A DNA stretch of 64,000 bases. Origin: Vicinamibacterales bacterium (GTDB lineage: Bacteria > Acidobacteriota > Vicinamibacteria > Vicinamibacterales > UBA8438). Position 1 is the stretch's first letter. Each line of letters opens with the position of its first letter. Under the pieces are notes generated by a model, which worked only from the letters and a program-made list of their open reading frames with translations, ran no database searches and was not told the origin of the DNA. The stretch is taken from positions 3,392,375 through 3,456,374 of the forward strand of contig OZ242003.1 of the NCBI GenBank assembly GCA_965204675.1, in the 5' to 3' direction. Of this stretch, positions 3,698 to 24,837 are shown piece by piece. A program made the position numbers and the translations under genes.

Positions 3698-3709
3698 TTG
3701 GTGACCCTC

Positions 3710-5580: not shown

Positions 5581-5673
5581 GACCGCTTGCCGGTCGTGTG
5601 TTCCGGGTAAAGAGGGCAAATGGCCTCGCGCCGTCGTGATTCCGGACGGCGGAGGCCGGTCAGGAGGGTCATC

Positions 5674-6069: not shown

Positions 6070-6125
6070 CCGGCGGCGCCAGGCGGTGGCGCCAGCCTGA
6101 CGGGGCGGTTCGCTCCCGCCGGCCC

Positions 6126-6725
6126 TCAGCGCAGGTGCCAGGACGCCAGCGCGACGGCCCAGAGGGCGAATGCGGCGAGGCCGGGTGCCCTCGGCCGCGG
6201 GATGGCGAGGGGCGCGACCATGGCGAGGCCGCACGCCAGGAACAACGCGGGTGCGAGCCACGGCCATGACGGCGCCGGCCACAGCAGGTACGTGGACCAG
6301 AGCAGCGCCGCGGCCGGGGACGGGAGCCCGACGAAGCGCGAGTCGTCCGCTTCCACGTTGTAGAAGCCCAGCCGGGTGACGACCGCGCCCAGGTACGCGA
6401 ACGCGCTTGCCCACCAGATGGCCGCGGCCGGCCCGCCGGCCGGGGGCGACGCCGCCGCGGCCGCCGCCACCGGGGCCACGCCGAACGCGCAGACGTCGAC
6501 CAGGCTGTCGAGTTCGCGGCCCACCCGGCGCTGCCGCGGCGAGCGGTGGAAGCAGCGCGCGAACCGGCCGTCGAACGTGTCGAGCAGCGCGGCGAGGGCC
6601 AGCCAGCCGCCCGCGGCCGCCGCCGCGCCCGAGCCGAGCCCCGCCGCCACCGCCGCGAGCGCGGCCGCGAGCGAGCCGTAGGTGAGGAGGTTCGCGACGT
6701 GCAGGTCGTGGATCGGCGCCCTCAT
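6126..6725 (-). CDS. CDP-alcohol phosphatidyltransferase family protein (last gene of lipid operon)
   Basis: Signature D-x2-DG-x2-AR...G-x3-D-x3-D is present as DTFDGRFARCF...GRELDSLVD, and the protein is multi-TM. Its ATG (6725..6723) overlaps the upstream stop (ATGA). Confidence 0.8.
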   Translation of the reverse strand: MRAPIHDLHVANLLTYGSLAAALAAVAAGLGSGAAAAAGGWLALAALLDTFDGRFARCFHRSPRQRRVGRELDSLVDVCAFGVAPVAAAAAASPPAGGPAAAIWWASAFAYLGAVVTRLGFYNVEADDSRFVGLPSPAAALLWSTYLLWPAPSWPWLAPALFLACGLAMVAPLAIPRPRAPGLAAFALWAVALASWHLR

Positions 6726-9700
6726 GATCCGTTGCCTTCCCCGCGGTCCGCGGCAGGACCCGGCGTCGCGCCGGGGCCGGCGCATCGCGGGTCGAAGGCG
6801 GCGGAGTCTTCCGCCACGGGCGGCCAGGCCCCGAAGAGGTCGTGGAGCCGCCGCCACGTTCGCACGATTCGCGGCAGGAACCGCAGGGGCCGGACGCGGT
6901 CGATCATCGCGTAGAACATCAACCGGTTGACGAGCAGGTCCGCCAGCGCGGCGCCGAATCCCGCTCTCCAGGCGCAGGGGTCCAGCCGCGCGCCGCCGGC
7001 GGCGGCCAGCGCGGCCCGATGCCGCTCGACGTACCGGGCCGCCTCGCCCCGGCGCACGCCGGGGTCGAGGACGAAGCAGAGGAAGTGGGCGAGGTCGCAC
7101 TGCGGGGCCCCGACCGTCGCGAGCTCCCAGTCGTAGGCGCAGAGCCGCGCGGACGCTCCGGCGCCGCGAATGGCGGCGTTCCGCGGGCTGAAGTCGTTGT
7201 GGATGAGGGTGCGCGCCGCCGTTTCGAGGCGGGGCCACCACGTCCCGAGCGAGTCGACGAGGGCGCGGTGGGTCCGAACGAGGGCCGGGCCGGCCCATTC
7301 GGCGAGTCGGGGCGCGGCGTGATCGGCCAGCGCGCGCCACAGGGGCGTCATCTCCACCATGCTCCGGGACGTGGCGACGTGGCCGATCCAGGGCCGGTTC
7401 CGAAGGTTGTCCTCCCGCCCGAGCCAGACCGCGTGGATCTCGGCGAGGCCGTCGACGGCGGCGCCCACGCGGTCGAGCGTCCAAACCGTCGGGTCGTCCG
7501 TCGCGTCGAGGAGGACATCGCCGTCGAGCCGTTCCAGGACGAGGCCCCATTCCCGGCGGGCGTCGTCGCGCCACGTGCCGTAGCAGACGGGCGTGTGACG
7601 CCGCAGGCGCTCGTCCGGCTCGGCGTAGAGGGCCAGCTCGCGGAGATGGGCCCCGCGCAGCCCGATGCGCTCCCGGAAGCGGCGCACCGCGCGCCCCAGG
7701 CCGGCGTCGCAGGTGTCCGCCATCGCCTCGGCGACCTCGATCAGCTCGCGGTCGGCCGGCTTGACCTTGGTCACGACGTCGAGCGGCCGCACGCTGCCCC
7801 GGCCGGCGACGTCGAGGCGGTAGCGGGACAGGCCCGTGCGTCCCCGGCCGCGCCAGCCGCCGAGCTCGGCGATGACGCTGTGCTCGGCGCCGTGCGCGTA
7901 GCGGGTCGCCCCGGTCACCGCGAGCGAGTCGTCGCCGAAGTGCCGTCGCAGCATCGGCTCGAAGCGGGCGCGATCGGGGTCGGCCGGCGGCGCCGGCGGG
8001 CTTGCCGAGGGTCGACTGGACGCGGGCCGGTTTGCCACGGGTCGGTTGGCCGCGGGTCGTTTGGCCGATAGTGGGTTGGTTGCCGTTCGATTGGCCGCCG
8101 TTCGATGGGCCGCCGGACGGTTGGCCGCCGGCCGGGGGCCGCGCCGCGGAGGCGGGAGGAAGCCGGCCGCCACGTACTCGTCGAAGTAGCGCCCGAGCAG
8201 GCCGGCGTCGAGCCGGTGGAAATCGAGACCGGCTTCCGCCAGGAGCGCCTGCGTCCGCGTGCTTCGCGGCGCGCTGCTGCGCGCCTCCTGGTACAGCTCG
8301 GGCACGGCGGTCCCGTCCGGCCGGCGCCTCAGGAAGAACCCGCGCAACCGGTGCAGGGCGTGGTCGGGCCGCGCCGCGTCCCGCGCGAGCTGTTCGGCCC
8401 AGTGGTCGTAGGGCGCGAGACGCACGGGATAGCCGTAGAGGTTCATCCAGAGCACGCACTCGCGCCAACGACGCGCCTGCCGCGCGCTCTCGTGGAACGT
8501 GGCGACCCCGTGGGAGTCTGCGCGGTGGAACGGCGCGGACTCCTGGAGGGTTGGTTGGGCGCCCGGCGGAGGCGTCAGGCGACGATGGGCGGGCTGGGGC
8601 GCGGTCGCCGACAGGTGGACGATGGCCCGCGCCGCCTGGTCGACGGGGACCGCGTCGATCCGCCAGTCGAGGTCGGGCGCGGTGCCCATCCGGATGCATC
8701 CCTTGAAGAGCGAGGACACGAGATCGTCGTGCTTGGAGACGCCGCTGGCGGAGTCGCCGGTGAGCAGGGCCGGCCGGTGTATCGACGCGCGCAGCCCGCG
8801 CGCCCGCGCCTGGCGCACCAGGGCCTCGGCGACGCACTTGCTCTGCGCGTACCCGAGCGGCAGCCCCTCCAGGCGCCCGAAGAGGTCGTCGTCCTCGGCG
8901 ACGAGCCGCGGCCCGCCCACGGCGTGGCAGACCGAGAGGCTCGAGACGAAGTGGAAGGCCTTGGGCCGGCCCCGGCACGCCAGGCGGAGCAGCTCGCGCG
9001 TGGCGACGACGTTGGCGGCGCGCAGGGCGCCGTACGGCGAGACCCAGTTGACGTCGGCCGCAGCGTGGTAGACGGTGTCGACGGTCGATGCGATCGCCGC
9101 GCGCGCGCCGCCGGCGAGGCCGAGTCCCGGCTGCGACAGGTCCCCGGTCACGGTGCGGATGCGGCGGCCGAACGCGTCGTCCCAGAGGCGGTAGCGTTCG
9201 AGGCTCCGGCGCACGCGCCGCGACGCGACATCGGCGTCGTCGACGCGCACGACGTCGGCGTCGCCGGTCCGTACGAGACACAGGACCTCCGCGCCGGTCT
9301 CCGTCAGCAGCGCCCTGAGCAGGTGCGCGCCGAGAAAGCCCGTGGCGCCCGTGAGCAGGACGCGCTCGCGCGATGGCGCGGGCGCGGCTCCGGGACGGCG
9401 TCCGCTTCGACATGGGCCGGGCGGAAGGCGCTCGCGCGACTGAGCGGGCGCGGCCTCGGGACGGATGTCGGGCGGCAGCACGCCGTCGTTCCGCATCAGG
9501 TCGATGGCCCGGTCGTCGTCCCGGCGCCGCGCGGGTTGCTCGCCGCTCTCCAGTCGCCGGACCAGCGCGTCGACGCTCGGATGGTCGGTCAGGAGCTCGT
9601 CGGACAGCGGCCGGCGGAAGGCGTCCTCCAGCTCGACGCCGAGCTCGACCGAGCGCAGCGAGTCGAGACCGTAGAGCGCCAGCGGCTCGCGCGGGTCGAT

Positions 9701-9793
9701 CTCGGCCGGCGCGAGCCCGAGGCAGCCCGCGACGACCTCGGTCACGCGGTCGCGCACCCCTTGGGCCACGGGTGAGGTCGGGTTCAGGGACAT
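6722..9793 (-). CDS. Tri-domain protein: acyl carrier (PP-binding) - thioester reductase (NAD-binding) - APH/choline-kinase-like phosphotransferase
   Basis: - ACP: LYGLDSLRSVEL.
- Reductase: LLTGATGFLGAHLL and YAQSKCVAE.
- Linker: 7x pentapeptide (PAANR).
- Kinase: LIHNDFSPRNA and AYDWELA.
- ATG at 9793. Confidence 0.8.
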   Translation of the reverse strand: MSLNPTSPVAQGVRDRVTEVVAGCLGLAPAEIDPREPLALYGLDSLRSVELGVELEDAFRRPLSDELLTDHPSVDALVRRLESGEQPARRRDDDRAIDLMRNDGVLPPDIRPEAAPAQSRERLPPGPCRSGRRPGAAPAPSRERVLLTGATGFLGAHLLRALLTETGAEVLCLVRTGDADVVRVDDADVASRRVRRSLERYRLWDDAFGRRIRTVTGDLSQPGLGLAGGARAAIASTVDTVYHAAADVNWVSPYGALRAANVVATRELLRLACRGRPKAFHFVSSLSVCHAVGGPRLVAEDDDLFGRLEGLPLGYAQSKCVAEALVRQARARGLRASIHRPALLTGDSASGVSKHDDLVSSLFKGCIRMGTAPDLDWRIDAVPVDQAARAIVHLSATAPQPAHRRLTPPPGAQPTLQESAPFHRADSHGVATFHESARQARRWRECVLWMNLYGYPVRLAPYDHWAEQLARDAARPDHALHRLRGFFLRRRPDGTAVPELYQEARSSAPRSTRTQALLAEAGLDFHRLDAGLLGRYFDEYVAAGFLPPPRRGPRPAANRPAAHRTAANRTATNPLSAKRPAANRPVANRPASSRPSASPPAPPADPDRARFEPMLRRHFGDDSLAVTGATRYAHGAEHSVIAELGGWRGRGRTGLSRYRLDVAGRGSVRPLDVVTKVKPADRELIEVAEAMADTCDAGLGRAVRRFRERIGLRGAHLRELALYAEPDERLRRHTPVCYGTWRDDARREWGLVLERLDGDVLLDATDDPTVWTLDRVGAAVDGLAEIHAVWLGREDNLRNRPWIGHVATSRSMVEMTPLWRALADHAAPRLAEWAGPALVRTHRALVDSLGTWWPRLETAARTLIHNDFSPRNAAIRGAGASARLCAYDWELATVGAPQCDLAHFLCFVLDPGVRRGEAARYVERHRAALAAAGGARLDPCAWRAGFGAALADLLVNRLMFYAMIDRVRPLRFLPRIVRTWRRLHDLFGAWPPVAEDSAAFDPRCAGPGATPGPAADRGEGNGS
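8027..8131 (-). repeat. In-frame 15-nt tandem repeat x7 (PAANR-like pentapeptide linker between reductase and kinase domains)
   Basis: Units of the type GGTTGGCCGCNGGNN on the plus strand; translated as RPAANRPAAHRTAANRTATNPLSAKRPAANRPVANRP. Confidence 0.8.
8513..8596 (-). repeat. ~85-nt hairpin repeat element (family E) inserted in-frame in the reductase domain
   Basis: GGAGTCTGCGCGGTGGAACGGCGCGGACTCC...GGTTGGTTGGGCGCCCGGCGGAG...GACGATGGGCGGGC matches the copies at 50486, 50570, 51205 and 59591. It is translated as AHRRLTPPPGAQPTLQESAPFHRADSHG. Confidence 0.8.
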
Positions 9794-11721
9794 GCCGCCT
9801 CCTGTGCGCCCGATGCCGCGAGCCCGACCGGCGGCCCCGCCGCGGGGGCGGCGCGCGCCTCGTCGGCGGGTGGTCCCGCCGCTGGGGCGCGCGCCACGCC
9901 GGCGGGCGGCTGACGCCAGATCGCGATGGCCTCGAGGTTCCCCGCCAGCAGGGCGTCCCGACACGCGAAGCGCTTCACCTTGCCGCTGGTCGTCTTCTCG
10001 ACGCCGCCCGGCGGGACCAGCGTGACCGCGCTCAACTGGACCCCGTGGGCCTCGGTGACGCCGCTTCGAATGGCGTCGATCGCCGCCTGCGCGGCGGCCG
10101 GGGACCCGAGCTCGCGGGGGTCGACCTCCGCGACGAGGGCGATCCGGTCCCCCGAGACGCAGCGGTCCGCCGCGAACGCGGCCGCGCAACCGGGCCGCAC
10201 GGCGCGGTGCCGGCCCTCGGCGGTCCGCTCCAGGTCCTGGGGGTAGTGCTTCGCCCCCCGGACGATCAGCAGGTCCTTCAGGCGGCCCGTGACGCGCACG
10301 CCGTCGCCGTCGACGGCGCCGAGGTCTCCAGTCCGGAGGAAGGGGCCCCGGCCGTCGGCCGTGCGCGCCGCGAACGTGCGCGCCGACTGCGCGGGCCGGT
10401 TCCAGTAGCCGGCGGCGACGCCCGGGCCGCCGACCCAGAGCTCGCCGACCTCGCCGTCCGCGCGCCGGCGGCCGCTCCGGGGATCGACGGCGATGACCGT
10501 GGTCCCCGGGTCGGGGCGGCCGCAGGAGACGCCGGGCTCGTGACCCCCGCCGGGCTCGTGGCCGCCGCCGGGCTCGTGGCCGCCGCCGGGCTCGTGGCCG
10601 CTGCCGGGCTCGTGCGCTGGCGGTCGGGGCGCGCTTGCGCGGTAGCGGCCGCTCGTCACGAGCAGCGTCGCCTCGGCCAGCCCGTAGCACGGCCGGAACG
10701 CGCTCGGCGCGAAGCCGCTGTCCGCGAACGCGGCGGCGAACCGCTCGAGGGTGCTTCGCCGGACCGGCTCGGCGCCGTTGTAGGCGTCGCGCCAATTGCG
10801 GAGATCGAGGGCGGCGCGCTCGTCGACCGCGATACGCCGGACGCACAGGTCGTACGCGAAGTTCGGGCCGCCGCTACGGGTCGCCCGGTACCGGGTGATC
10901 GCCTTCAGCCACCGGACCGGCCTCTGCAGGAACGCGGTCGGCGACATCAGGTAGGCGGGACACCCGCTGAATACGGGTTGCAGCACCCCGTCGATCAGCC
11001 CCATGTCGTGGACGACGGGCAGCCACGACACCGACACCGTCGAGCTGTCGTTCCCGGCCTGGCGGAAGGCGCAGGCGAGGTTGTGCAGCAGGTTGGCGTG
11101 GGTGACCATCACGCCCCGCGGGGCCGCCGTCGAGCCGGAGGTGTACTGCAGAAAGGCGAGGGTGCGGCCGGCCGCCCCGGGGTCGCGCCAGGCCCGTGCG
11201 GCGGACGCGTCGAGGGCGTCGGTCGCCACCCAGGCCGCCGCCCCGTCCCGGGCACGCCGCCCGCCCGAGGGCCTCGAGAGGGCCGGCGCGGCCCCCGCCG
11301 CCACCGCCCGTGCCCAACGCTCGATGGTCCTGGTCGGGCCCAGCACGACTTCCGGCCGCGCGTCGTCCACCACCGCGACGGCCCGCGCGAGGTTGCGGTC
11401 GGGGGACCGCCACCGCGGCGGGAAGACGGGGACCGCCGCGACCCGCGCATACAGGCACCCGAAGAACGCCGCGACGAAATCGAGCCCCGGCGGGTACATC
11501 AGCAGCGCCCTCGCCCCCGGCCGTGCGCGGACCCGGAGGACCGCGGCGACCGTGCGGCTCCGGCGGTCGAGCTCGGCATAGGTGACCGCGTCGCTCTCGT
11601 GCTCGCCGTCGCGGAGGAAGACGAACGCGTCGTCGTTCGGCTGCACGCGCGCCCGGAACCGCAGGAGCTCGACGAGCGACCGGCCGCTGAAGGCGGTTCC
11701 GCGCGGCGTTTCGGAGGCCAT
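9784..11721 (-). CDS. Fatty acyl-AMP ligase (FAAL-type adenylating enzyme)
   Basis: Motifs: LQYTSGSTAAPRGVMVTH, YGLAEATL, TGDLG, LIVRGAKHYPQD and the terminal KTTSGKVKR. ATG at 11721. Confidence 0.85.
   Translation of the reverse strand: MASETPRGTAFSGRSLVELLRFRARVQPNDDAFVFLRDGEHESDAVTYAELDRRSRTVAAVLRVRARPGARALLMYPPGLDFVAAFFGCLYARVAAVPVFPPRWRSPDRNLARAVAVVDDARPEVVLGPTRTIERWARAVAAGAAPALSRPSGGRRARDGAAAWVATDALDASAARAWRDPGAAGRTLAFLQYTSGSTAAPRGVMVTHANLLHNLACAFRQAGNDSSTVSVSWLPVVHDMGLIDGVLQPVFSGCPAYLMSPTAFLQRPVRWLKAITRYRATRSGGPNFAYDLCVRRIAVDERAALDLRNWRDAYNGAEPVRRSTLERFAAAFADSGFAPSAFRPCYGLAEATLLVTSGRYRASAPRPPAHEPGSGHEPGGGHEPGGGHEPGGGHEPGVSCGRPDPGTTVIAVDPRSGRRRADGEVGELWVGGPGVAAGYWNRPAQSARTFAARTADGRGPFLRTGDLGAVDGDGVRVTGRLKDLLIVRGAKHYPQDLERTAEGRHRAVRPGCAAAFAADRCVSGDRIALVAEVDPRELGSPAAAQAAIDAIRSGVTEAHGVQLSAVTLVPPGGVEKTTSGKVKRFACRDALLAGNLEAIAIWRQPPAGVARAPAAGPPADEARAAPAAGPPVGLAASGAQEAACP
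10531..10614 (-). repeat. In-frame 18-nt tandem repeat (~4.7 copies) encoding (HEPGGG)n inside the FAAL
   Basis: gccgggctcgtggccgcc units; protein AHEPGSGHEPGGGHEPGGGHEPGGGHEPG. Confidence 0.85.
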
Positions 11722-11726
11722 GGGCG

Positions 11727-12569
11727 TCACCACCCCCGGGCTCCGTCGCCCACCGGCGCGGCCGCGCCGACGACGGTCGGGCGGGGCGCGGGCCGCTCGG
11801 GCCGCTCGCCGCGCCGCTCGCGGTGCCATTCGATGAACCTCCGGCGGACCGCCCGCGTGTTCGCGGCGAGATCGGCGAGCCGCCAGTCGGCGGTGTCGAT
11901 GGCCGGCATGACGTGGACCCGCACCGTGCCCGGCCGGGCGTCGTAGCCGCGGCCCGGATCGATCTCCGGGGGTATCTCGAGGTAGAGCGGCACGATTGGC
12001 GCCCCGAGGCTGGTGGCGAGGTGGAACGCGCCCTTGTTGAAGCGGCCGATGCCGCCGGACGTGATTCGGGCCCCCTCGGGACTCAGATAGACGGATTCGC
12101 CGGACCGGCGCAGGGCGCGGTCCGCCCGCTGGAAGATCCGGACCCGCTCGGCCGGCCGGGTCTGGGGCACGGTGAAGAAGGTGCCCATCAGTTGCGCGAT
12201 GAAGCCCAGGGGCAACAGCTTCCGGAGCTCCCCCGCCAGGAAGAAGCGGGTGTCGGGGAGGCCCAGCGCCACCAGGACGAACAGGTCGATCGTCGACGAG
12301 TGGTTCGAGACGTACACCGTCTGCGCGGCCGGGAACGGCCGGTCGCGGTGGACCACCACCCGCAGGCCCCACACGCGGAGCACCGCGCGCGCCGCGAGGG
12401 TCGCCGCGCGCGCGTAGAGGCGGCGCGCCCGGAACAGCGTCAGGCAGGCGACGAGCACGAGGGCGAGGGCGACCCCGCTCAGGAGCGCGGCGGTGACCGC
12501 CGCCAACGCCGCGAGACGTACCCGGCGGGGGCGCCTCGCCGGCAGGATGGTCCGCGCGGGATCGTTCAT
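11727..12569 (-). CDS. Lysophospholipid/glycerol-phosphate acyltransferase (PlsC family)
   Basis: N-terminal TM segment, NHSSTID (HX4D) and SPEGAR motifs. Its ATG overlaps the upstream stop (ATGA at 12566-12569). Confidence 0.8.
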   Translation of the reverse strand: MNDPARTILPARRPRRVRLAALAAVTAALLSGVALALVLVACLTLFRARRLYARAATLAARAVLRVWGLRVVVHRDRPFPAAQTVYVSNHSSTIDLFVLVALGLPDTRFFLAGELRKLLPLGFIAQLMGTFFTVPQTRPAERVRIFQRADRALRRSGESVYLSPEGARITSGGIGRFNKGAFHLATSLGAPIVPLYLEIPPEIDPGRGYDARPGTVRVHVMPAIDTADWRLADLAANTRAVRRRFIEWHRERRGERPERPAPRPTVVGAAAPVGDGARGW

Positions 12570-13576
12570 GGCCGCCTCCGGCAGACGACGGTCTGCATCG
12601 CGAGGTTGCATCGCCTGACCAGCGACAGCACCGGCTGCAGCATGAGCTGCCCGGCGAAGTACGGGTAGATGGCGCGGCGCATGTTCAGCCCGCGCCCCTT
12701 CAGCACGCGGAACGCGACGCCGCAGAACAGGTAGAAGTACGGCGGAAACGCGCCGTAGGGCAGGTAGTCGACGACCTCGAGATCGGCCCTCTCGACCATT
12801 CGCAGCAGGGCCGCCCGGTCGTAGAGCGCGGTGTGCTGGGGCGCCTGCAGGCCCGGCCACCGGTCCCCGAACAGGCGGAACGTCAGGCTGTCGAGCCGCG
12901 GCACCTCGATGACCAGCCGCCCCTCGTCCTTGAGGGCGCGGCGCGCGGAGATCAGCGACGGCAGGGGCGCGTAGTCGTGCTCGAGGAAGTGCCACATCGT
13001 GACGAGGTCGAACCGGCCGGCGCCCACGTCCTGCTCGTGGAACGGGCCGCAGTGGAACTCGACCCCGCGCAGCGCGGGGCGGTCGGCGAGGTCGACGAAG
13101 TCGACGCCGACCCCGGCCGCGCCGTGCCGGGCCCGGAGGCCGGCGAGGAACGTGCCGGCGCCGCAGCCCACGTCGAGCACCGTGCTCGACGCGTCGAGGG
13201 CCAGGTACCGGCGGCAGATCCGCAGCTTCTCGCGGTCGACGGCCCCCATCGCCCACCGGAACAGGGGAGCCATCCAGCCCCAGTCGGAGCCCGGCCGGTG
13301 GGCCAGGTAGTCCTCGTCGTAGTAGTCCTTGACGCGCTCGATGGTCAGCCGGGGCGTCTGGTACACGAGGCCGCAGGCCCGGCAGCACCGGAACGTGAAG
13401 CGGCCGGGGCGCCCCGTCAGGTCGTCCTCGGCGGTGATGAAGGGGTCCGACGCGGCGTGGCCGCAGCCGCAGCAGGCCACGGCCTCGAAGTCCCGACCGT
13501 CCCCGGGATCGTTGCCGACGCGCGGCCGGGGCCGCGCATCGACGGCGGAATCGATCGCGATCGTCGTGGAGTTCAT
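12566..13576 (-). CDS. Class I SAM-dependent methyltransferase with N-terminal Cys4 zinc-ribbon
   Basis: CCGCG...CCRACG followed by VLDVGCGAGTF (motif I) and LVIEVP. ATG at 13576 is preceded by GGAGAGCGGAG. Confidence 0.75.
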   Translation of the reverse strand: MNSTTIAIDSAVDARPRPRVGNDPGDGRDFEAVACCGCGHAASDPFITAEDDLTGRPGRFTFRCCRACGLVYQTPRLTIERVKDYYDEDYLAHRPGSDWGWMAPLFRWAMGAVDREKLRICRRYLALDASSTVLDVGCGAGTFLAGLRARHGAAGVGVDFVDLADRPALRGVEFHCGPFHEQDVGAGRFDLVTMWHFLEHDYAPLPSLISARRALKDEGRLVIEVPRLDSLTFRLFGDRWPGLQAPQHTALYDRAALLRMVERADLEVVDYLPYGAFPPYFYLFCGVAFRVLKGRGLNMRRAIYPYFAGQLMLQPVLSLVRRCNLAMQTVVCRRRP

Positions 13577-13740
13577 GGCAGTGCTCCGCTCTCCGTGCGG
13601 CGCCCATCGCCGGACGGGCGCGTTGGCTTCGTCGTGGAGTTCATGGCAGTGCTCCGCTCTCCGTGCGGCGTCCATCGGCGGACGGCGTGGGTTGGCGGCT
13701 CCGAGGTGTCGTTCGTGGCGGTGCTCCGCTCTCCGCAGGC
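13561..13740 (-). repeat. Tandem duplication (68 nt, 72 nt, ~2.5 copies) of the RBS + ATGA stop/start junction upstream of the methyltransferase
   Basis: ttcatggcagtgctccgctctccgtgcggcg occurs at 13572 and 13640, with a degenerate third copy at 13712. Confidence 0.85.
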
Positions 13741-14282
13741 CGGTTGTGATGCACCTCGTACCCGATCGCCGCCGCGTACATCACCGCCATCGCGAGGGCC
13801 AGCGGAGGCGTCCGCGGCGCACCGGCGGCCGCCGCGACGAGGGCGACGAAGACGGGATACTTGGCCAGCAGCACGCCGAAGCGCCAGAGGCGGTCGGACA
13901 CGCGGGCGCGCAGCCGGTAGGCCGCGAGGAAGGCCACGTCCAGAACGGCGAGTCCGGCCGCGGCGACCGCGGACCGCGCCGCCAGGACGACGAGGTTACC
14001 GACCCCGATGGCGACGAGCGCGCGCCGGAACGGCGCGGGCGGCACGACGACCAGAATCCGTTCGGGATGGGTCGCCCGGTCCCGGTCGCGATCTTCGAGG
14101 TCGTCCCAGAGCCGGAACTGCAGCAGGAGGAGGGCGGCGAGGCCGGCCGCCGCCGCGAGCCGTGCCGGCGTCGGCTCCGCGCCGGCCGCCCACAGCGCCA
14201 GCCCCACGTGCAGCGCAGTGGCGGGGGCGAACACGGCGGGGCGGAACCGCTGGGCGAGGTACGCGGCGAACCGGCCGGTCAT
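13641..14282 (-). CDS. Short polytopic membrane protein with UbiA-superfamily first Asp-rich motif
   Basis: About 6 predicted TM helices. DLEDRDRDRATHPER matches DxxDRxxDxxxxPxR. Its ATG overlaps the upstream stop (ATGA 14279-14282). The last ~30 codons are repeat-derived, so the true C-terminus is uncertain. Confidence 0.6.
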   Translation of the reverse strand: MTGRFAAYLAQRFRPAVFAPATALHVGLALWAAGAEPTPARLAAAAGLAALLLLQFRLWDDLEDRDRDRATHPERILVVVPPAPFRRALVAIGVGNLVVLAARSAVAAAGLAVLDVAFLAAYRLRARVSDRLWRFGVLLAKYPVFVALVAAAAGAPRTPPLALAMAVMYAAAIGYEVHHNRPAESGAPPRTTPRSRQPTPSADGRRTESGALP

Positions 14283-17035
14283 GCGGCGCCTCGCTCGTCC
14301 TCGGGCGCCGCGGCGCTCTCCGCCGTACCCGGGTCGATCGTGCAGACGCCGCGGTCGCCGTCCACGGTGACGCGCTGGCCGGACGCGATGCGGCCGGTCG
14401 CGTTCTCGACCCCGACGACGCAGGGCAGGCCGAACTCGCGCGCGACGATCGCCCCGTGCGAGAGCAGCCCGCCGCGCTCGATCACCAGCCCCGACACCAG
14501 GCCGAACACCGGCGCCCATCCGGGGTCGGTCTGGCGGGTCACCAGCACGTCGCCGCCGCGCAGGCGGGCGGCGTCGCGCACGTCGCCGAGCACCGCGGCG
14601 GGGCCCGACGCGGCGCCGCCGCACGCGCCCGTCCCGCGCAGCGTCGAGGGGCGGGGACACGGCTCGTCGCCCTGGTCCTCCCGTCCGCGCGGGATCGATC
14701 CGAAACCCGGGGCGAGGTACTCCCCCGCCGGCAGGGCGAGCGTCGCGGGGGGGCGCATGGCCCCCAGCGCCGCGTGCTCCCGCCGCCGTAGGGCGACGAG
14801 GTCGGGAACGCCGTACGGGAACATCGCGCGGCCCGCCCCGAGCGCCTCGATCTCCTGCCAGGTCAGCATGAAGACGTCGTCCGGCTTCGCGAGGCGCCCG
14901 TCGGCGGCCAGGCGCCGGCCGATGGCCAGCGCGACCCGCCGGAGGCGCGTGTAGAGCAGGGCCTGCTTCAGGCGGGCCCGCTCGCGGTAGGCGACGCTGG
15001 CCTGCGCCGCGCGCAGCAGCCAGCGCACCGCGAGGGCCAGGGCCGGGGACCGCCGGGCCAGGGTCCTCGTCACCCGGGACGTCTCCTCCACGCGCCCGGC
15101 CGCCTGCCGCGCCATCACCGCCGCCGGCGGCTCTCCGTCGCTGGCCGCGTACTGCCGGAGCAGCTCGATGACCGGGGCCGGGTCCTCCTGGAGGCTCGGC
15201 AAGGTCAGCATCAGCTCGGCCGACGAGCGGAACCCCCAGTCCTCCAGGAACCGGTCGAGCTCGCGCCGGAACCCCGCGAACCGGTCGTCGCCGCGGACCG
15301 CTTCCAGGATCGCCGGCGTCTCGCCGCTCGCGAACAGCCGGTCCAGCCGCGCGTCCGAGCGGATGAGGCGCGAGAGCGCCCAGAGGCGCAGGGGCGGCGT
15401 CGCCGACGGCACGCCGGGCAGCGCGCGCAGCAGCCGGTTGTGCAGCCCCCCGCGCGCGTCGACGCGCCGGAGCGCGCGCTGCAGCAGCGCGTAGCAGACC
15501 ATCGCCGCCGCGTCGGCGAGCGAGGCGTCCTTCCAGCCGTGGAAGCGGATGTCGAGAAACGACCGGAGATCGTCGAGCAGCCCGCTCGACGAGCGGCGGG
15601 CGAGCCGGTCGGGGTGGGTGCGCGCCGCGAAACGGTCGGCGCGATCCTCGAACGCTTCCAGCCGCCGTCGCAGGAACAGGTACTGCCGGATCGTGCAGGC
15701 CGCCACGCGCAGCAGCTCCGCCGCCTGGCCGACGCGGCCGCGGCCCTCGCCCCACCGCGTCGCGCCCGGGGGCGGCGGGGCGACGTCGTCCGCCCCCACG
15801 AACTGGTTGAACGCCCGCGCCAGCGGTTCTCCGCACGGCGCCATGCGCAGGACCGCGTGGATGCTCGTCAGGTTGTAGTACAGCCGCCCGCCGTGCACGC
15901 CCACGATCGCCGCCAGCGCCGGGTCCATGGCCGCGACCCGTCGGCGGGAGATGCCGAACGCCAGGGCGAGGTTTCGGAAGTAGTGGTAGTAGCCCGGGGC
16001 CACGAACGAGTAGAGCAGCGGGCAGATCGGGGCCGGGAAGTTCTCGTTGACGTTGGCGTTCGACCAGAGCACGGTGGGCCCGGCGGCGCCGGGCGCGTCA
16101 CCCGTCGCGGTGATCGGCCTCGACTGGAGAATCCAGAGCCGCCCGTCGTCGTCGAAGCTCCACTCGACGTCCTGGGGCGCGCCGAGCTCTCGTTCGAGGC
16201 GGAGGGCCGCGCCGGTCAGGGCGCGGACATCGGCCGCGGACAGGAGACCGCCGGGCGCCGGGGCCGACCCGGCCGGCGTCCGACCGGCGCGCGACACGAC
16301 CAGGCGCTCGGGCTCGACGCGCCCCGAGACGAGCCCGTCCGCCAGGCCGCGGCAGCACTCGATCAGGAGATCGTCACCCGACGCGCCGCCCGCGCTGGCC
16401 GGCGCGCGGGTGAAGAGCACGCCCGACACGCGGGCGGACACCTGCCGCTGGATGATGACGGCCATTCCGCCGAGCCCGGCTCGGCGCGCGGCGCGGTAGT
16501 GGAGCGACCGCTCGGACCAGTACGACGCCCAGCAGGCCCGCACCGCGCGCCGCAACGCTTCCTCCCCGGCGACGTGCAGCACCGAGTCGAACTGGCCCGC
16601 GAACGAGGCCGCGGCGCCGTCCTCTCCGACGGCGGAGCTGCGCACCGCCAACGCCCCCGCGGGCAGCTCTCGCGCGGCCGCGTCGAGCGCCTCGGCGACG
16701 GCGGCCGGCAGCGGGCGGCCCATGACCTGGGCGAGGACGGCCTCGGCGATCTCCCGGCGCCCGGCCGCGTCCGTCGGGTCGGGCCGGCGCTCGAGGGCGG
16801 CCGCGCGGGCGCCGAGCCCGTCCGCGGCCAGGAACCGGCGGAACGCCTCGCAGGTCAGGACGCGGCCCGCCGGCACCGGGAACCCGAGCCCGATCAGCTT
16901 CGCCAGGCTCGACGCCTTGCCGCCCGCCTGCCGCGGGTCGAGGGCCTGCCCGAGCGGGACCATCACGGGAGGTCCCGCGGGTCGGTCCGCCGGCGGGCGG
17001 ACCCGGACGGGCTCGAGCGCCGCCGCCCCCGTCAC
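14279..17035 (-). CDS. PEP-utilising/pyruvate-water-dikinase-like phosphotransferase (N-terminal ATP-grasp PPDK_N, C-terminal swivelling phospho-His domain)
   Basis: GGKASSLAKL, VRSSAVGEDG..SFAGQ and DVEWSFDDDGRLWILQSRPIT at the N-terminus. C-terminal DVLVTRQTDPGWAPVF...GGLLSHGAIVAREFGLP. GTG start. Confidence 0.8.
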   Translation of the reverse strand: MTGAAALEPVRVRPPADRPAGPPVMVPLGQALDPRQAGGKASSLAKLIGLGFPVPAGRVLTCEAFRRFLAADGLGARAAALERRPDPTDAAGRREIAEAVLAQVMGRPLPAAVAEALDAAARELPAGALAVRSSAVGEDGAAASFAGQFDSVLHVAGEEALRRAVRACWASYWSERSLHYRAARRAGLGGMAVIIQRQVSARVSGVLFTRAPASAGGASGDDLLIECCRGLADGLVSGRVEPERLVVSRAGRTPAGSAPAPGGLLSAADVRALTGAALRLERELGAPQDVEWSFDDDGRLWILQSRPITATGDAPGAAGPTVLWSNANVNENFPAPICPLLYSFVAPGYYHYFRNLALAFGISRRRVAAMDPALAAIVGVHGGRLYYNLTSIHAVLRMAPCGEPLARAFNQFVGADDVAPPPPGATRWGEGRGRVGQAAELLRVAACTIRQYLFLRRRLEAFEDRADRFAARTHPDRLARRSSSGLLDDLRSFLDIRFHGWKDASLADAAAMVCYALLQRALRRVDARGGLHNRLLRALPGVPSATPPLRLWALSRLIRSDARLDRLFASGETPAILEAVRGDDRFAGFRRELDRFLEDWGFRSSAELMLTLPSLQEDPAPVIELLRQYAASDGEPPAAVMARQAAGRVEETSRVTRTLARRSPALALAVRWLLRAAQASVAYRERARLKQALLYTRLRRVALAIGRRLAADGRLAKPDDVFMLTWQEIEALGAGRAMFPYGVPDLVALRRREHAALGAMRPPATLALPAGEYLAPGFGSIPRGREDQGDEPCPRPSTLRGTGACGGAASGPAAVLGDVRDAARLRGGDVLVTRQTDPGWAPVFGLVSGLVIERGGLLSHGAIVAREFGLPCVVGVENATGRIASGQRVTVDGDRGVCTIDPGTAESAAAPEDERGAA

Positions 17036-17257
17036 GCCGCCCTCGCTTTCACCCGGAGAAGGAACAGGGCGGCGCTGAACCCCGCGTGCACCAGGGGTTC
17101 GGCGAGCAGGACGAAGAGGCAGACCCGCCAGGACATCGGCACCCCCGTCATGCCGCCCTCGCCTTCACCCGGAGAAGGAACAGGGCGGCGCTGAACCCCG
17201 CGTGCACCAGGGGTCCGGCGAGCAGGACGAAGAGGCAGACCTGCCAGGAGACCGGCA
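17026..17257 (-). repeat. Tandem duplication (2 x 116 nt) of the CarS-like 3' end / dikinase-like start junction
   Basis: Copies at 17026-17141 and 17142-17257 are ~93% identical. One carries GTGACGGGGG and the other ATGACGGGGG. Confidence 0.9.
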
Positions 17258-17741
17258 CCGCCAGCGCCAGCGCCAGCAGCATCCCGGCGGTCGAGTCGAA
17301 CCGGTCCGCGACGAGGAAGACGGCCCGGAGGCGCCGCCCCGCCGCCGCCTCGCCGGGCGCGACGCCGAGCCGGCGCTTGACGAACGAGTTGGGGAGCTCG
17401 CCCGCCATGAAGCCCAGGGCCGCCCAGGCGCCGAGCAGGCCGTACGACGCCGGCGCGAGCGGCCAGAGCCCGGCGGCCGCGAGCCCCGGCCGCGCCGACA
17501 CGAGGGCCGCGAGGGCGGTGAAGCTGACGCCGGTGGCGGGCACCATCACCAGGAAACCGCGGACCGTCTTGTGCGCGCCCAGGATCGGCCGGCCGCCGAG
17601 GGCGCGGCCGCCGTCGAGGGGGACCGCGAAGCGCCGCGAGAGGGGCGCGGCCAGCCACGCGGTGTGCGCGAGGCCGGACAGGGTGAAGCCCGTCACCAGG
17701 AACAGGCCGCACGCCACGGGATCGAGGGCAGGCGCGGTCAT
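17148..17741 (-). CDS. CarS-like (CDP-archaeol synthase family, DUF46) cytidylyltransferase membrane protein
   Basis: GAHKTVRGF and GELPNSFVKRRLGVAPG...ADRFDS match the family motifs (KT.rG; GDl..SFiKRRlG; D.lD). Five TM segments; ATGA overlap at 17738-17741. Confidence 0.7.
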   Translation of the reverse strand: MTAPALDPVACGLFLVTGFTLSGLAHTAWLAAPLSRRFAVPLDGGRALGGRPILGAHKTVRGFLVMVPATGVSFTALAALVSARPGLAAAGLWPLAPASYGLLGAWAALGFMAGELPNSFVKRRLGVAPGEAAAGRRLRAVFLVADRFDSTAGMLLALALAVPVSWQVCLFVLLAGPLVHAGFSAALFLLRVKARAA

Positions 17742-18697
17742 ACGTCGAACCCCGACCGGTCGCGGTTCTGGAACAGGAACACCTCGCCGGGGACCGCGCG
17801 CGCGGCCGGCACCCACGTCGTCCAGCTCACCTCGTTCCGTACCGGGCGCCGGACCTCCGGCAGCCGGTACCCCGGCACCGCGGGATACAGGTGGTGCAGC
17901 TCGTGGGCGTCGAAGTGCAGGAGCATCCTCGACAGCCACCCCGGCAACCGGAGCGACCGCGTGAAGGGGCCCTGGGCCGGCGCGGCGTACGGCTCCACGT
18001 CCCGGCCGCGGCTGAGGTGCATCGGCATGTGGGTGTGCTGGCTGAGGAGGAGGACGTCCTGGACCACGAGGGTCAGGAGCAGCGCCGGCCCCGCGGCGCG
18101 GACGAACGCGGCCGGGCCGAGGGCGACGGCCGCGGCGGCCCAGACCGCGGCCACCGCCGCGGCGTCGACGACGATCGCGCGGGCCTCGGCCGGCTTCGGA
18201 CCGATCAACCGGAACAGCCGGGCCAGGTTCCAGTAGTTGCCCGTCCGGTAGAGGACCGAGAAGATCGGGATCCAGCACCGCCAGCAGACGTTGACGGCGA
18301 GCCGTTCGAAGCGGCCCAGGGGTCGCGGCACGAGGGCCGCGGTGGTCGGGTCGAGGTCCTGCCACCCCGTCCACTTGTGGTGGCGCGCGTGGATCGGCTT
18401 CCAGCAGCGGAACGGGATCAGCGCGAAGAACCCCGCCACCGGGCCGACGGCGTCGTTCAGCCGCCGCGTCCGGAAGAGGGTCCCGTGCCCGCACTCGTGA
18501 AGCAACGCGAACCACTGGAGGAACGCCGCCGCGAGGACCAACTGCCCGGCCGCCCAGGGCAGGGCCGGCTCGCGGGTCGCGAGCCATCCACCGGCGGCGG
18601 TCGCCGCCGCCGCCCAGCCGGTGAACGCCAGGCCCGTCCCGTCGGCGGGGCGGAAGTCCGGAACCGGCGCCGGCTTCTCGATGACCTCGCTGCGCAT
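17738..18697 (-). CDS. Membrane fatty-acid desaturase family protein (first gene of lipid operon)
   Basis: Three His boxes: HECGH, HARHH, HELHH. ATG at 18697; an in-frame TTG at 18706 is also possible. Confidence 0.8.
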   Translation of the reverse strand: MRSEVIEKPAPVPDFRPADGTGLAFTGWAAAATAAGGWLATREPALPWAAGQLVLAAAFLQWFALLHECGHGTLFRTRRLNDAVGPVAGFFALIPFRCWKPIHARHHKWTGWQDLDPTTAALVPRPLGRFERLAVNVCWRCWIPIFSVLYRTGNYWNLARLFRLIGPKPAEARAIVVDAAAVAAVWAAAAVALGPAAFVRAAGPALLLTLVVQDVLLLSQHTHMPMHLSRGRDVEPYAAPAQGPFTRSLRLPGWLSRMLLHFDAHELHHLYPAVPGYRLPEVRRPVRNEVSWTTWVPAARAVPGEVFLFQNRDRSGFDV

Positions 18698-18787
18698 GTT
18701 TCTCAAGATAGAAGGCGGCCGCCGCGCAAGTCCTGACGAAACCGTGAAGTTGGGGTGAAGAAAGGCTGAGTGCTACGATTCCGCGCC

Positions 18788-20695
18788 ATGGCCCGGCAGG
18801 AGGGGTCGTACCGGTTCGGCGACTTCAGGGTCGATCCCACCGCCTACACCTTGCGGCGCGCCGGCGAGCCGGTGCCCCTGTCCCCCCGGCCGTTCGACCT
18901 GCTCGTCCATCTGCTGCGGAACCCGGGGCGGCTCGTCACCAAGGACGAGCTGCTGGACGCGCTCTGGCCGGGGGTCGCGGTCACCGAGAACACCCTGACG
19001 CGGGCCGTTTCCGAGCTGCGGCGGGCCCTCGGCGACACGCCGGGGGCGCCGCGGTGCATCGAGACGGTGCCCCGGCGGGGCTACCGGTGGATCGCCGCGA
19101 CGGGGTTGGATGCCCCCGCCGGCGGGTCCGACGCCCCGCGTCCGCCGGGGCGCGCCGTCGCCGTCGTCGACTTCGCGAACCTCACCGGCGACGACGCGCT
19201 CGCGTGGCTGGCCCCCGGCATCGCCGAGACCGTGACCAACGACCTGAGGACCCTCGACGGACTGCGGGTGATCGACCGCTGGCGGGTCGTTGAGGCGGCG
19301 GTCGAGGCCGGACCGGCGCCGGCCGGCATCGCGGCGGCGGTCGAGGCCGATCTCGTCGTGGCGGGAAGCTACCAGCGGATGGGGGACCGCCTGCGGGTCA
19401 CCGCCCGCATGCTCGAGGCGGGGACCGGCGACACCGTCGCGGACGCGAAGGCGGACGGACGGCTGGATGCGATCTTCGAGCTCGAGGACCAGATCGTCCG
19501 GCAGTTCTCGGCGGGCCTCGGACTCGACGGTGGGGCCGGGCCCCGCGCCCCGCGGGAGACGTCGAGCCTCGACGCCTACCGGGCCGCGATCGAGGGCTAC
19601 GTGCAGTTGCAGTCGCTCGACGCGCGGCTCCTGCCGGCCGCGGTCGAGTCCTTCGAGCGGGCCGTCGCCCTCGACCGCAGCTATGCGCCGGCCTACGCGG
19701 GGCTCGCCAACGCCGAGCACGCGCTCTACGAGCTGACGCGCGCCGCGAACCGGCCCGACCGGGCGCGCCTCGAGTCGGCGCTGCTCCATGCCCACCGCGC
19801 CGTCGAGCTGAACGCGCGCCTCGCGGGCGCGCACGCCACGCTCGGCTTCCTGCTCGTGAGCGCGGGGCGGCGGTCGGAGGCCCTGGCCGCGGCGCGGCGC
19901 GCCGTCGACCTCGATCCCCACGACTGGATGCACCTGTTCATCCTCGGCCACGCGTCGTGGGGCGGCGAGCGCCTGCGCGCCCAGGCGCGGTCCATCGCGC
20001 ACTACGCCGAGTTCGCGTTCGCCCACTTCAGCATGGCGATGGTGCACGTGGCGCGGAACGACCTGCCGGCGGCCGAGCGGGTGCTCAGGGAGGGAACGGC
20101 GATCCAGGACCGTCAGCTCGGGCGCCGCCAGCGACTGCCCTCGAGCGGGCTGCACTGGCTGCTGGGCTGCACCCGGTTCAGGCAGGGCGATGCCGACGAG
20201 GCGCTCCGCGAGTTCGACCTCGAGATGGACCACGCGCGCAACGACTACCTGTACGCGCAGGAGTACACCGAGGCTTCGCAACTGGGCCGCGGCTTCGCCT
20301 TCGCCGGCCGGGGGCGGCGCGACGCGGCCCGGGACAGCTTCGACGCGGTGCTCCGGGCGCATCCGGACCAGGCGCGCGCGCATCTGGGGCTGGCCCTGCT
20401 GGCGCGGACCGAGGGGCGGGACCGCGAGATGGAGGCCGCCCTGGCGCGGGCCGAGGCGGCGATGGCCGAGCTCGACAGGGGCGGGCGGATCGCCGAGGCC
20501 GCGGTGGCGCGCGCGGGCGCGCTCGCCCTGCGCGGCCGAAAGGATGAAGCGGTCGCGCAACTCGACCGACTGCTGAACGAGCCCCCGATCGCCTTCGCGG
20601 GGTGGACGATTCCCGTCGAGCCGCTCCTCGAACCCCTGTCTCGGACCGACGGGTTCGACCGGGTCCTGGCTCGGCTCGCGGACCGCGCCCGGTGA
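18788..20695 (+). CDS. Winged-helix (OmpR/CadC-type trans_reg_C) transcriptional regulator with TolB-like and TPR C-terminal region
   Basis: FGDFRVDPTAYTLRRAGEPVPLSPRPFDLLVHLL...LVTKDELLDALWPG...RRGYRW, followed by TPR-like helical repeats. It is divergent from the lipid operon. Confidence 0.8.
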   Translation: MARQEGSYRFGDFRVDPTAYTLRRAGEPVPLSPRPFDLLVHLLRNPGRLVTKDELLDALWPGVAVTENTLTRAVSELRRALGDTPGAPRCIETVPRRGYRWIAATGLDAPAGGSDAPRPPGRAVAVVDFANLTGDDALAWLAPGIAETVTNDLRTLDGLRVIDRWRVVEAAVEAGPAPAGIAAAVEADLVVAGSYQRMGDRLRVTARMLEAGTGDTVADAKADGRLDAIFELEDQIVRQFSAGLGLDGGAGPRAPRETSSLDAYRAAIEGYVQLQSLDARLLPAAVESFERAVALDRSYAPAYAGLANAEHALYELTRAANRPDRARLESALLHAHRAVELNARLAGAHATLGFLLVSAGRRSEALAAARRAVDLDPHDWMHLFILGHASWGGERLRAQARSIAHYAEFAFAHFSMAMVHVARNDLPAAERVLREGTAIQDRQLGRRQRLPSSGLHWLLGCTRFRQGDADEALREFDLEMDHARNDYLYAQEYTEASQLGRGFAFAGRGRRDAARDSFDAVLRAHPDQARAHLGLALLARTEGRDREMEAALARAEAAMAELDRGGRIAEAAVARAGALALRGRKDEAVAQLDRLLNEPPIAFAGWTIPVEPLLEPLSRTDGFDRVLARLADRAR

Positions 20696-24833: not shown

Positions 24834-24837
24834 CGAC

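Follow-up and report, generated by a model that had tools for sequence, protein, structure and literature searches.

What product is made by a block of nine minus-strand genes at 6126-18706 of a 64-kb stretch of Vicinamibacterales DNA (the whole stretch analysed is called the window below)? The nine genes form one compact operon, and we tentatively read it, at somewhat less than an even chance, as a self-contained route to a non-canonical membrane phospholipid into which the chain would enter as a phosphorylated fatty alcohol. Soils and sediments widely contain non-isoprenoid alkyl glycerol ethers and branched tetraethers, and these lipids serve as climate proxies. To our knowledge, the bacteria that produce them and the enzymes that form their ether bonds aerobically are largely unknown. 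The cluster is a compact candidate for a further ether-lipid route beside those described, namely the elb cluster, AGPS, PlsA/PlsR and Ger (PMC13159169).

The window has a G+C content of 70-77%, so that long open reading frames (ORFs) occur in all frames; coding regions were called from the G+C content of third codon positions (GC3). The GC3 frame analysis gave unbroken minus-strand coding over 6126-18706, and the genes were labelled g1 to g9 in the order of transcription.

17738-18706, minus strand: g1, membrane His-box desaturase or hydroxylase, 322 amino acids (aa), start TTG 18706 or ATG 18697 (PF00487, 1.2e-28)
17148-17741, minus strand: g2, CarS-like (DUF46) membrane cytidylyltransferase, 197 aa (PF01864, 27.8 bits against a gathering score of 22)
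14279-17035, minus strand: g3, His-swivel phosphotransferase of the rifampin phosphotransferase (RPH)/PigC/RedH type, 918 aa (PPDK_N 2.6e-56, PEP-utilizers 8e-26)
13641-14282, minus strand: g4, short membrane protein assigned to the UbiA superfamily by family matches and a structure model, 213 aa
12566-13576, minus strand: g5, class I S-adenosylmethionine (SAM) methyltransferase with an N-terminal Zn ribbon, 336 aa (PF13489, Methyltransf_23, 1.9e-22)
11727-12569, minus strand: g6, PlsC-type (AGPAT) membrane acyltransferase, 280 aa (PF01553, 3e-18)
9784-11721, minus strand: g7, probable fatty acyl-AMP ligase (FAAL), 645 aa, alternative start GTG 11730 (AMP-binding 4e-61, with a DIP2-like C-terminus)
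6722-9793, minus strand: g8, acyl carrier protein (ACP), thioester reductase, linker and kinase, 1023 aa (PP-binding; NAD_binding_4, 1e-59; EcKL, 22.2 bits)
6126-6725, minus strand: g9, CDP-alcohol phosphatidyltransferase, PssA/archaetidylserine-synthase-like, 199 aa (PF01066, 3e-12, 47.5 bits against 22)

Eight of the nine products exceeded their Pfam gathering scores, the exception being g4, which gave no match at E<=0.01; inspection of the motifs found the expected catalytic residues intact in all nine. The domain calls of the preliminary description, which had been made from the letters of the DNA, were upheld at Pfam threshold for these eight, while the UbiA-like call stood at the level of family and fold only. 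The same description had treated the genes as a single coupled unit, in agreement with the continuous coding and the overlapping junctions. Four of its five ATGA start/stop overlaps were verified (17738, 14279, 12566 and 6722); the ATGA at 13641 is present, but its ATG, at 13644, lies in another reading frame than the methyltransferase. The 10-nt overlap of g7 and g8 at 9784-9793 is real. Between g6 and g7 there is either a GTGA overlap, if translation starts at 11730, or a 5-nt gap, if it starts at ATG 11721; g2 and g3 do not overlap directly and have a 116-nt tandem duplication across their junction. The operon is flanked by a convergent DUF6152 gene (5620-6069, plus strand) and by a divergent gene for a Trans_reg_C/TolB_N/TPR protein (18770-20695, plus strand).

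Related loci were collected with one exact g4 peptide pattern from a set of one genome per species, covering 185,579 species. At least 78 loci carry the g4 signature, an exact pattern giving a lower bound, and they are distributed as follows.

Planctomycetota, one Kuenenia metagenome-assembled genome included: 23 loci
Vicinamibacterales, the closest, with g4 identity up to 76%: 13 loci
Other Acidobacteriota: 12 loci
Burkholderiales/Betaproteobacteria, the isolate Massilia glaciei B448-2 (locus L061, NZ_PXWF02000269.1) included: 12 loci
Other Proteobacteria: 6 loci
Myxococcota, Bdellovibrionota and 'delta': 4 loci
Nitrospiria: 3 loci
Gemmatimonadota: 2 loci
Nitrospinota, Binatia and Verrucomicrobiota: 1 locus each

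A six-gene core consisting of the desaturase, CarS-like, RPH-like, UbiA-like, methyltransferase and PlsC genes was collinear within 9 kb in 49 of the 78 loci and spans about ten phyla; most of the remaining loci are truncated by contig ends. Among the 49 complete loci the reductase and kinase were present in 44, the FAAL in 29 and the CDP-alcohol transferase in 28, the last being positioned upstream of the desaturase in Planctomycetota. The flanking genes differ between lineages, apart from a regulator in Vicinamibacterales, and the recurrence of the gene set that the preliminary description had proposed as a check is borne out by this collinear core in unrelated surroundings. From these comparisons the window most probably belongs to a genome of Vicinamibacterales (Acidobacteriota subdivision 6). 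An exact copy of the window g4 protein was absent from the contig index searched. In databases the homologues bear unspecific names, 'SDR family oxidoreductase' or 'phosphotransferase family protein' for example; in the June 2026 release of NCBIfam no equivalog claims any of the nine proteins, and a full-text search of the literature returned no paper describing this gene set. The nine-gene cluster is conserved yet apparently has never been studied, consistent with the earlier statement that no pathway of this composition had been described.

Gene fusions and replacements among the loci constrain the functions of several products. The reductase and kinase form a single ORF in 49 loci, and in L058, L066, L068 and L083 the FAAL, ACP, reductase and kinase are all contained within one ORF. 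The UbiA-like protein and the methyltransferase are fused in L057, L072 and L073. In Massilia the reductase-kinase has no ACP and the cluster no FAAL. In a Nitrospiria locus (L022) the place of the APH-fold kinase is taken by a DAGK_cat lipid kinase and that of the CarS-like protein by an enzyme of the CdsA type (CTP_transf_1). In L049 a full HMG-CoA_red domain (342 bits) replaces the NAD_binding_4-type reductase and is fused to the same kinase, adjoining genes for a CTP_transf_1 protein (in place of CarS), an RPH-like protein and a UbiA-like protein. The HMG-CoA-reductase-kinase proteins P0119, a fragment of such a fusion, and P0093 are located on contigs of less than 2 kb, and the gene context was read from L049. 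HMG-CoA reductase is a different four-electron thioester reductase, and the retention of the same kinase while the reductase is swapped argues that a free alcohol is the product handed over. The core logic of the preliminary description, from thioester to primary alcohol to phosphate ester, is supported by the reductase-kinase fusions, the L049 fusion, the DAGK_cat and CdsA-type replacements, and the constant pairing of the RPH-like and UbiA-like genes. From the fusions and two independent replacements we infer that the alcohol-to-phosphate step is fairly secure, and the swap of CarS for CdsA makes the presence of a lipid-phosphate cytidylyltransferase step fairly secure as well.

The RPH-like and UbiA-like genes are adjacent and on the same strand in every variant that has both. 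This includes one of two distant clusters found through the kinase, L085 (5489-9173), where the RPH-like gene lies beside a g4-like gene and is accompanied by genes for MMPL, AMP-binding, DUF3419 (BtaA-like, SAM-dependent) and kinase proteins. The other, L086 (6919-12219), contains AMP-binding, reductase and kinase genes, an MMPL lipid exporter and a UbiA-like gene. These two clusters suggest a wider family of envelope lipid clusters based on alkyl phosphates. The recurrent module is a thioester reductase, a hydroxyl kinase, an RPH-type phosphotransferase and a UbiA-like protein of the g4 family, to which clusters of the window type add an assembly set of PlsC, a cytidylyltransferase and an optional head-group transferase.

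The chain-activating enzymes were compared with characterised families. For g7 the best single-enzyme NCBIfam matches are all FAAL (PRK05850 403 bits, FadD21 361 and FadD32 341, all under their cutoffs), with scores against acyl-CoA ligase models far below these. The g8 protein comprises an ACP (nt 9551-9751), a reductase (8600-9361), a repetitive linker (8004-8143) and a kinase (6794-7969), with the motifs GLDSL42, TGATGFLG148, YAQSK315, HNDFSPRN865 and YDWE887. The reductase, which carries TGxxGxxG and YxxxK, scores 278 bits against TIGR01746, over the cutoff of 213, and its closest sequence in the PDB is the terminal reductase of myxalamid synthesis MxaA (4u7w, 4e-64), which we take to be an alcohol-forming enzyme yielding a primary alcohol. 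The kinase region matches EcKL at 22.2 bits, against a threshold of 22, and contains the HxDxxxxN and DxE catalytic motifs; its homologues match PF01636 in most cases or otherwise PF02958. The C-terminal domain of about 400 residues had no sequence match in the PDB, and its AlphaFold2 (AF2) model (pLDDT 87) gave Foldseek matches of about 1e-6 to APH-fold hydroxyl kinases, among them APH, the choline kinase LicA, 25-hydroxysteroid kinase, homoserine kinase and the lanthipeptide kinases TvaE and LxmK. By its modelled fold this domain is an APH/choline-kinase-type hydroxyl kinase. TvaE, LxmK and 25-hydroxysteroid kinase phosphorylate a hydroxyl group, making it a leaving group. Two in-frame repeats occur in these genes, one of 18 nt in 4.7 copies at 10530-10614, encoding HEPGGG in a loop of the FAAL, and one of 15 nt in 9.4 copies at 8004-8143, encoding ANRPx between the reductase and kinase; such repeats explain much of the approximately 120 extra residues of g8 relative to its homologues.

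The g3 protein, which had been described as dikinase-like, has PPDK_N (37-251) and PEP-utilizers (827-896) domains. Its architecture is that of RPH, in which an ATP-grasp domain comes first, a substrate domain occupies the centre and a swivelling His domain forms the C-terminus. It aligns over its full length with RPH of Listeria (5fbs/5hv1, 2e-64), and its homologues carry PF27448 (Rph_4th). The swivel motif GGLLSHGAIVAR is found at 855, with the catalytic His within GGLLSHGA. A Pfam search for PEP-utilizers_C gave no match, so that the phosphoenolpyruvate (PEP)/pyruvate barrel is missing; with this and the RPH-like architecture, identification as PEP synthase or PPDK was rejected. None of the NCBIfam models was passed, the scores being 508 bits for PEPS-like (cutoff 883), 357 for RedH, 295 for PigC and 287 for RPH (cutoff 999). 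RedH and PigC, which are prodiginine condensing enzymes, thus rank after RPH as named relatives of g3.

The signature gene g4 encodes a core of about 190 aa that forms six long helices in an AF2 model (pLDDT 90.5). An alignment of 28 sequences revealed the invariant signature QFRLWDDLEDRxxDxxxHPxR, together with invariant KYP141-143, E176 and H179. The first Asp-rich motif, [ND]DxxDxxxD, is present as DDLEDRDRD at residue 60, and D60, D61, D64 and D68 are invariant in the same sequences. Where the preliminary description had named profile searches as the check on its CarS-like and UbiA-like calls, the former passed as listed above and the latter did not: window g4 scores 14.1 bits against PF01040 (E 0.029), below the gathering score of 34.2. 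Across the family PF01040 matches 19 of 28 members at E<=0.1, with a best E-value of 6.9e-9, and a long homologue (P0203) scores 28.4 bits. The best Foldseek matches of the g4 model are the archaeal DGGGPS structures 6m31/7bpu (TMq 0.62-0.63), followed by the membrane phosphoribosyltransferase (PRTase) 8j8j/8j8k (TMq 0.56-0.62) and ApUbiA 4od4 (0.58); over these matches the probability is 0.97-1.0 but the E-values are only 0.04-1. A g4-family profile gave chance matches only against PDB sequences. At about 190 aa, the Vicinamibacterales proteins cover the first two-thirds of UbiA, while homologues of 270-300 aa from other phyla have extra C-terminal helices and span positions 5-228 of the 250 in PF01040. 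Taken with the structure model, the family matches indicate that g4 is a truncated member of the UbiA superfamily; when 1.84 billion proteins are grouped at 50% identity, its family makes up about 900 of the clusters.

The remaining products resemble enzymes of lipid assembly and tailoring. The g2 protein scored 55 bits (8e-15) against the NCBIfam CDP-archaeol synthase NF003114, the equivalog cutoff of 148 not being reached; it aligns to ApCarS (5GUF) with conservation of the KTVRG58, SFVKRRLG119 and DRFD146 blocks, and its homologues in loci L001-L005 carry PF01864 matches. On this comparison g2 is a true but divergent bacterial CarS homologue, not an orthologue by the equivalog criterion, and its activity is a predicted one. 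The acyltransferase g6 contains HSSTID90 (HX4D) and PEG164 as well as an N-terminal hydrophobic helix at 28-46. The g9 motif DTFDGRFAR...GRELDSLVD lies at residue 49 (DxxDGxxAR...GxxxDxxxD), and g9 scored alike against the NCBIfam models for archaetidylserine synthase (58 bits) and pssA (57 bits), both under their cutoffs. The His boxes of g1 are HECGH70, HARHH106 and HELHH268, and its nearest NCBIfam model is the Delta5 acyl-lipid desaturase DesA at 58 bits, far under the cutoff. The methyltransferase g5 has two CxxC pairs (CCGC35 and CRAC65) and the motif VLDVGCGAG133, and is the most conserved gene of the cluster, with a median identity of 58% over the 49 loci. Neither the g1 nor the g5 sequence had a match in the PDB. 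A role for g5 as a lipid C-methyltransferase of the cyclopropane fatty acid or mycolate type was rejected, as its CMAS match was sub-threshold at just 16 bits.

In the proposed pathway the FAAL g7 would adenylate a long-chain fatty acid and load it onto the ACP of g8, whose thioester reductase would carry out a four-electron reduction to the primary alcohol. The fused APH-fold kinase would convert the alcohol to an alkyl phosphate, and the His-swivel enzyme g3 might add a second phosphoryl group to give an alkyl diphosphate or an equivalent activated ester. The Asp-rich motif of g4, together with Mg2+, would bind the (di)phosphate, and the protein would transfer the alkyl group to an acceptor of the glycerol-phosphate type, forming an ether bond; this would equal the reaction of archaeal DGGGPS, the donor being a fatty alkyl compound. 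PlsC, CarS-like and PssA-like enzymes are the standard catalysts of acylation, CDP-activation and head-group addition. The remaining free hydroxyl would be acylated by g6, the CDP-activated lipid would be produced by g2, and the head group would be added by g9, or by housekeeping enzymes in clusters that have no g9. The desaturase g1 and the methyltransferase g5, which is physically coupled to g4, would then tailor the lipid, candidate modifications being a methylation and a double bond, the latter either in the chain or as a vinyl ether. The presence of an acyltransferase makes a mixed alkyl/acyl lipid likelier than a diether, and the product is possibly ether-linked. A bolder reading, which we regard as less likely than not, is that the cluster represents an ether-lipid route of many phyla not recognised before. 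In it an APH-fold kinase, and after it a His-swivel enzyme of the RPH/PigC type, would turn the fatty alcohol into a fatty alkyl diphosphate, a divergent UbiA-superfamily enzyme would use this to alkylate glycerol phosphate, and a CarS-type enzyme would activate the product.

Several observations weigh against the proposed pathway. The second phosphorylation and the alkyl transfer are drawn from adjacency and fold only, and for the second phosphorylation by g3 from adjacency only. UbiA enzymes normally use allylic diphosphates or phosphoribosyl pyrophosphate (PRPP), and we know of no precedent among them for displacement at a saturated primary carbon, which is the main chemical objection. The Pfam gathering score for UbiA is reached by no member of the g4 family, and window g4 has six helices where UbiA has eight to nine. 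The short g4 forms are also without the canonical second DxxxD motif and have only YE176xxH179[DN] at this position, which may be a degenerate second Asp-rich motif; the long forms show ExxLDD or ExxLHD there. The reductase could stop at the aldehyde, as two- and four-electron enzymes are not told apart by sequence, and in a few Planctomycetota loci (L042, L043 and L067) that carry the six-gene core, no reductase-kinase lies closer than 10 kb. The best-conserved gene, g5, has no defined role in the model, and in every carrier the lipid product is deduced from the genes alone.

Other products could be drawn from the same genes. If the lipid were free of glycerol, the CarS-like enzyme could make a CDP-alkanol from alkyl phosphate and CTP, the CDP-alcohol transferase could join serine or another alcohol to give an alkyl phosphodiester, and PlsC could acylate the head group, leaving the UbiA-like and RPH-like proteins for another step. 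CarS and CdsA-type enzymes do use lipid phosphomonoesters, a dedicated cytidylyltransferase is found in every cluster retrieved with g4 whose contig covers that position, and alkyl phosphate is, given the fusion of reductase and kinase, the intermediate that can be placed with most confidence. However, such a scheme gives no role to the invariably paired RPH-like and UbiA-like genes, and the distant clusters L085 and L086 keep the kinase and the UbiA-like protein with no cytidylyltransferase. The CDP-alcohol transferase is also missing from 21 of the 49 complete clusters, so that housekeeping enzymes expecting a substrate like CDP-diacylglycerol must often finish the synthesis; overall a CDP-alkanol route appears unlikely. 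An Elb-type synthesis, in which the ether would arise through FAAL-ACP-reductase and acyltransferase chemistry while the kinases, UbiA-like and CarS-like proteins act later in head-group addition or remodelling, would account for the presence of the ElbD domain set (FAAL, ACP, reductase and AGPAT), and elb-like clusters have been reported in Acidobacteriota subdivision 6 (preprint, 10.64898/2026.06.23.733905). It is nevertheless given a small probability: the reductase is fused to a kinase and not to an AGPAT, many proteobacterial versions do without the FAAL and ACP, and a domain of the HMG-CoA-reductase type can take the place of the reductase with the kinase retained.

The alkyl phosphate could alternatively be a carrier or acceptor, with g4 resembling the mycobacterial decaprenyl-phosphate phosphoribosyltransferase Rv3806c and moving a phosphoribosyl or other diphosphate-activated group onto it to make an envelope glyco- or phospholipid. 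The PRTase structures 8j8j and 8j8k are within the top four structural matches of g4, and MMPL exporters lie alongside the module in L085 and L086. We consider this improbable, since sugar- or PRPP-related genes occur in none of the variants, the PlsC, CarS and PssA-like proteins indicate glycerophospholipid assembly, and the RPH-like partner is left unexplained. The least probable of these explanations, to which we attach very little weight, is a secondary-metabolite cluster like those of nonribosomal peptide synthetases (NRPS), making a phosphorylated lipid signal or antibiotic and not a bulk membrane lipid. An FAAL with an ACP-reductase is typical of NRPS-like clusters, relatives of PigC/RedH and RPH are found in natural-product and resistance settings, and the family is rare (at least 78 loci among the 185,579 species); but the strict collinearity over phyla, the lack of other tailoring or resistance genes, and the four integral-membrane enzymes of phospholipid type favour a membrane lipid.

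If the phosphorylated fatty alcohol pathway is correct, bacteria would apply CarS- and DGGGPS-like chemistry to fatty chains, a finding of relevance to the 'lipid divide'. UbiA chemistry would be widened to saturated alkyl donors, the first such transfer, and both RPH/PigC-type phosphotransferases and APH-fold kinases would gain physiological lipid substrates. The carriers belong to abundant, poorly cultured lineages of soil and water, including Vicinamibacterales, Pirellulaceae, Nitrospiria and Gemmatimonadota, with a single cultured strain, Massilia glaciei B448-2. The cluster is read as a bacterial operon for special-lipid or ether-lipid biosynthesis, which could be categorically new if its chemistry is confirmed, and whatever its product, a lipid operon of six to nine genes in about ten phyla merits characterisation.

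The junctions and the regulatory region of the operon contain three further features.

17026-17259: tandem duplication at the g2/g3 junction, period 116 nt, 2.0 copies, 94% matches by TRF, copies 93% identical
13561-13735: tandem duplication at the g4/g5 junction, period 68 nt, 2.5 copies, 85% matches by TRF
18770-20695, plus strand: candidate operon regulator, a winged-helix Trans_reg_C/TolB_N/TPR protein by Pfam

The duplication between g2 and g3 repeats the final 38 codons of g2 and gives a 39-codon mini-ORF (17032-17151, minus strand) with ATGA coupling to the g2 stop and GTGA coupling to the g3 start. The duplication between g4 and g5 similarly gives a 23-codon mini-ORF (13573-13644, minus strand) that closes in a second ATGA, and this second copy, at 13576, is the true start of g5; the ATG at 13644, which opens the mini-ORF, was rejected as the g5 start. 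Junction duplications of 45-125 nt also occur in the closest Vicinamibacterales relatives (L006 at 6896-7126, 9917-10042, 11509-11637 and 12447-12641; L013 at 14525-14646). In the window and these near relatives they copy a gene end with its ATGA overlap, yielding short coupled mini-ORFs, while more distant loci have no such duplications; the same kind of duplication is seen at the N-termini of the g4 homologues P0007 and P0013. As the closest relatives carry junction duplications of their own, these are features of the lineage and not artefacts of assembly.

The divergent regulator gene adjoins the cluster in 12 Vicinamibacterales loci and was the sole recurrent neighbour when six-frame ORFs were clustered across loci with the cluster masked. 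Its product is 88% identical to the L013 copy, a higher identity than that of most of the adjacent operon enzymes. The start codons of the regulator and g1 are about 65 nt apart, so the two promoters must overlap. A scan of 5500-19500 for promoters and terminators gave nothing useful at approximately 75% G+C.

In the wider surroundings of the operon the window encodes two dehydrogenases that depend on PQQ, of which one carries a fused cytochrome c domain, as well as two c-type cytochromes (20973-22931, minus strand; 29610-31772, 117-1016 and 3698-4699, plus strand). MacB/FtsX and an outer-membrane efflux protein are encoded at 24790-29471, and all of this is the ordinary context of a Gram-negative soil bacterium. 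The region 38171-46430 has a G+C content of 0.66-0.68 compared to about 0.72. Its products are an ATPase of the AAA_14/DUF4143 kind, a DEAD-helicase protein of 1357 aa that also carries DUF559 and a Zn ribbon, and a protein whose C-terminal domain is that of a Mu transposase, and the region may represent a defence island or mobile element. A 1106-aa protein of the DNA polymerase III alpha type (PHP, DNA_pol3_alpha, finger, HHH and OB domains) is encoded at 52049-55369 on the plus strand, preceded by several short genes on the same strand (ORFs at 48405-51871), and together they could be a mutagenesis cassette of the imuA-imuB-dnaE2 type.

When the cluster is compared with known systems, the label 'Elb-like' of the preliminary description fits the domain set but not the architecture. 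The elbB-elbE genes of Myxococcus xanthus and the cluster both encode FAAL, ACP, NAD_binding_4 reductase and PlsC/AGPAT domains. By domain layout ElbD is a single FAAL-ACP-reductase-AGPAT polypeptide, whereas the window has three genes for PlsC, FAAL and ACP-reductase-kinase, with the AGPAT separate and upstream of the FAAL and the reductase fused, unlike in ElbD, to an APH-fold kinase. The cluster further contains genes for RPH-like, UbiA-like and CarS-like proteins, a methyltransferase and a desaturase, which the cited papers do not mention for elb clusters.

The label 'archaeal-type' also stands in part: for CarS, equally with a bacterial PssA assignment for g9, and at fold level with weak E-values for g4. 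The archaeal series of DGGGPS, CarS and archaetidylserine synthase is paralleled by the UbiA-fold g4, the CarS-family g2 and the similarly scoring CDP-alcohol transferase g9. In contrast to archaea the window has no GGGPS, glycerol-1-phosphate (G1P) dehydrogenase or prenyl-diphosphate synthase, the chain apparently being derived from a fatty acid through the FAAL and reductase; unlike archaeal DGGGPS, g4 is truncated. With RPH and PigC/RedH, g3 shares the three-part architecture and likewise the missing barrel, but it is under every equivalog cutoff and is placed in a lipid-synthesis context.

Phytol salvage in plants and cyanobacteria uses the CTP-dependent kinase VTE5 and the phytyl-phosphate kinase VTE6, followed by UbiA-type transferases. 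It shares the logic by which a lipid alcohol is converted to a monophosphate, then to a diphosphate and to a donor for a UbiA-family enzyme, and one of its kinases is from the CTP-transferase superfamily related to CdsA and CarS. It differs in its kinase families, its allylic isoprenoid donor and its lack of a phospholipid assembly module. The eukaryotic and myxobacterial ether route proceeds through FAR, GNPAT and AGPS and then plasmanyl desaturase, and its alcohol-forming NAD_binding_4 reductase, PlsC-family acyltransferase and membrane di-iron desaturase have counterparts here. It differs in that the window has no AGPS flavoenzyme, and the alcohol, instead of displacing the acyl group of acyl-dihydroxyacetone phosphate, is apparently phosphorylated.

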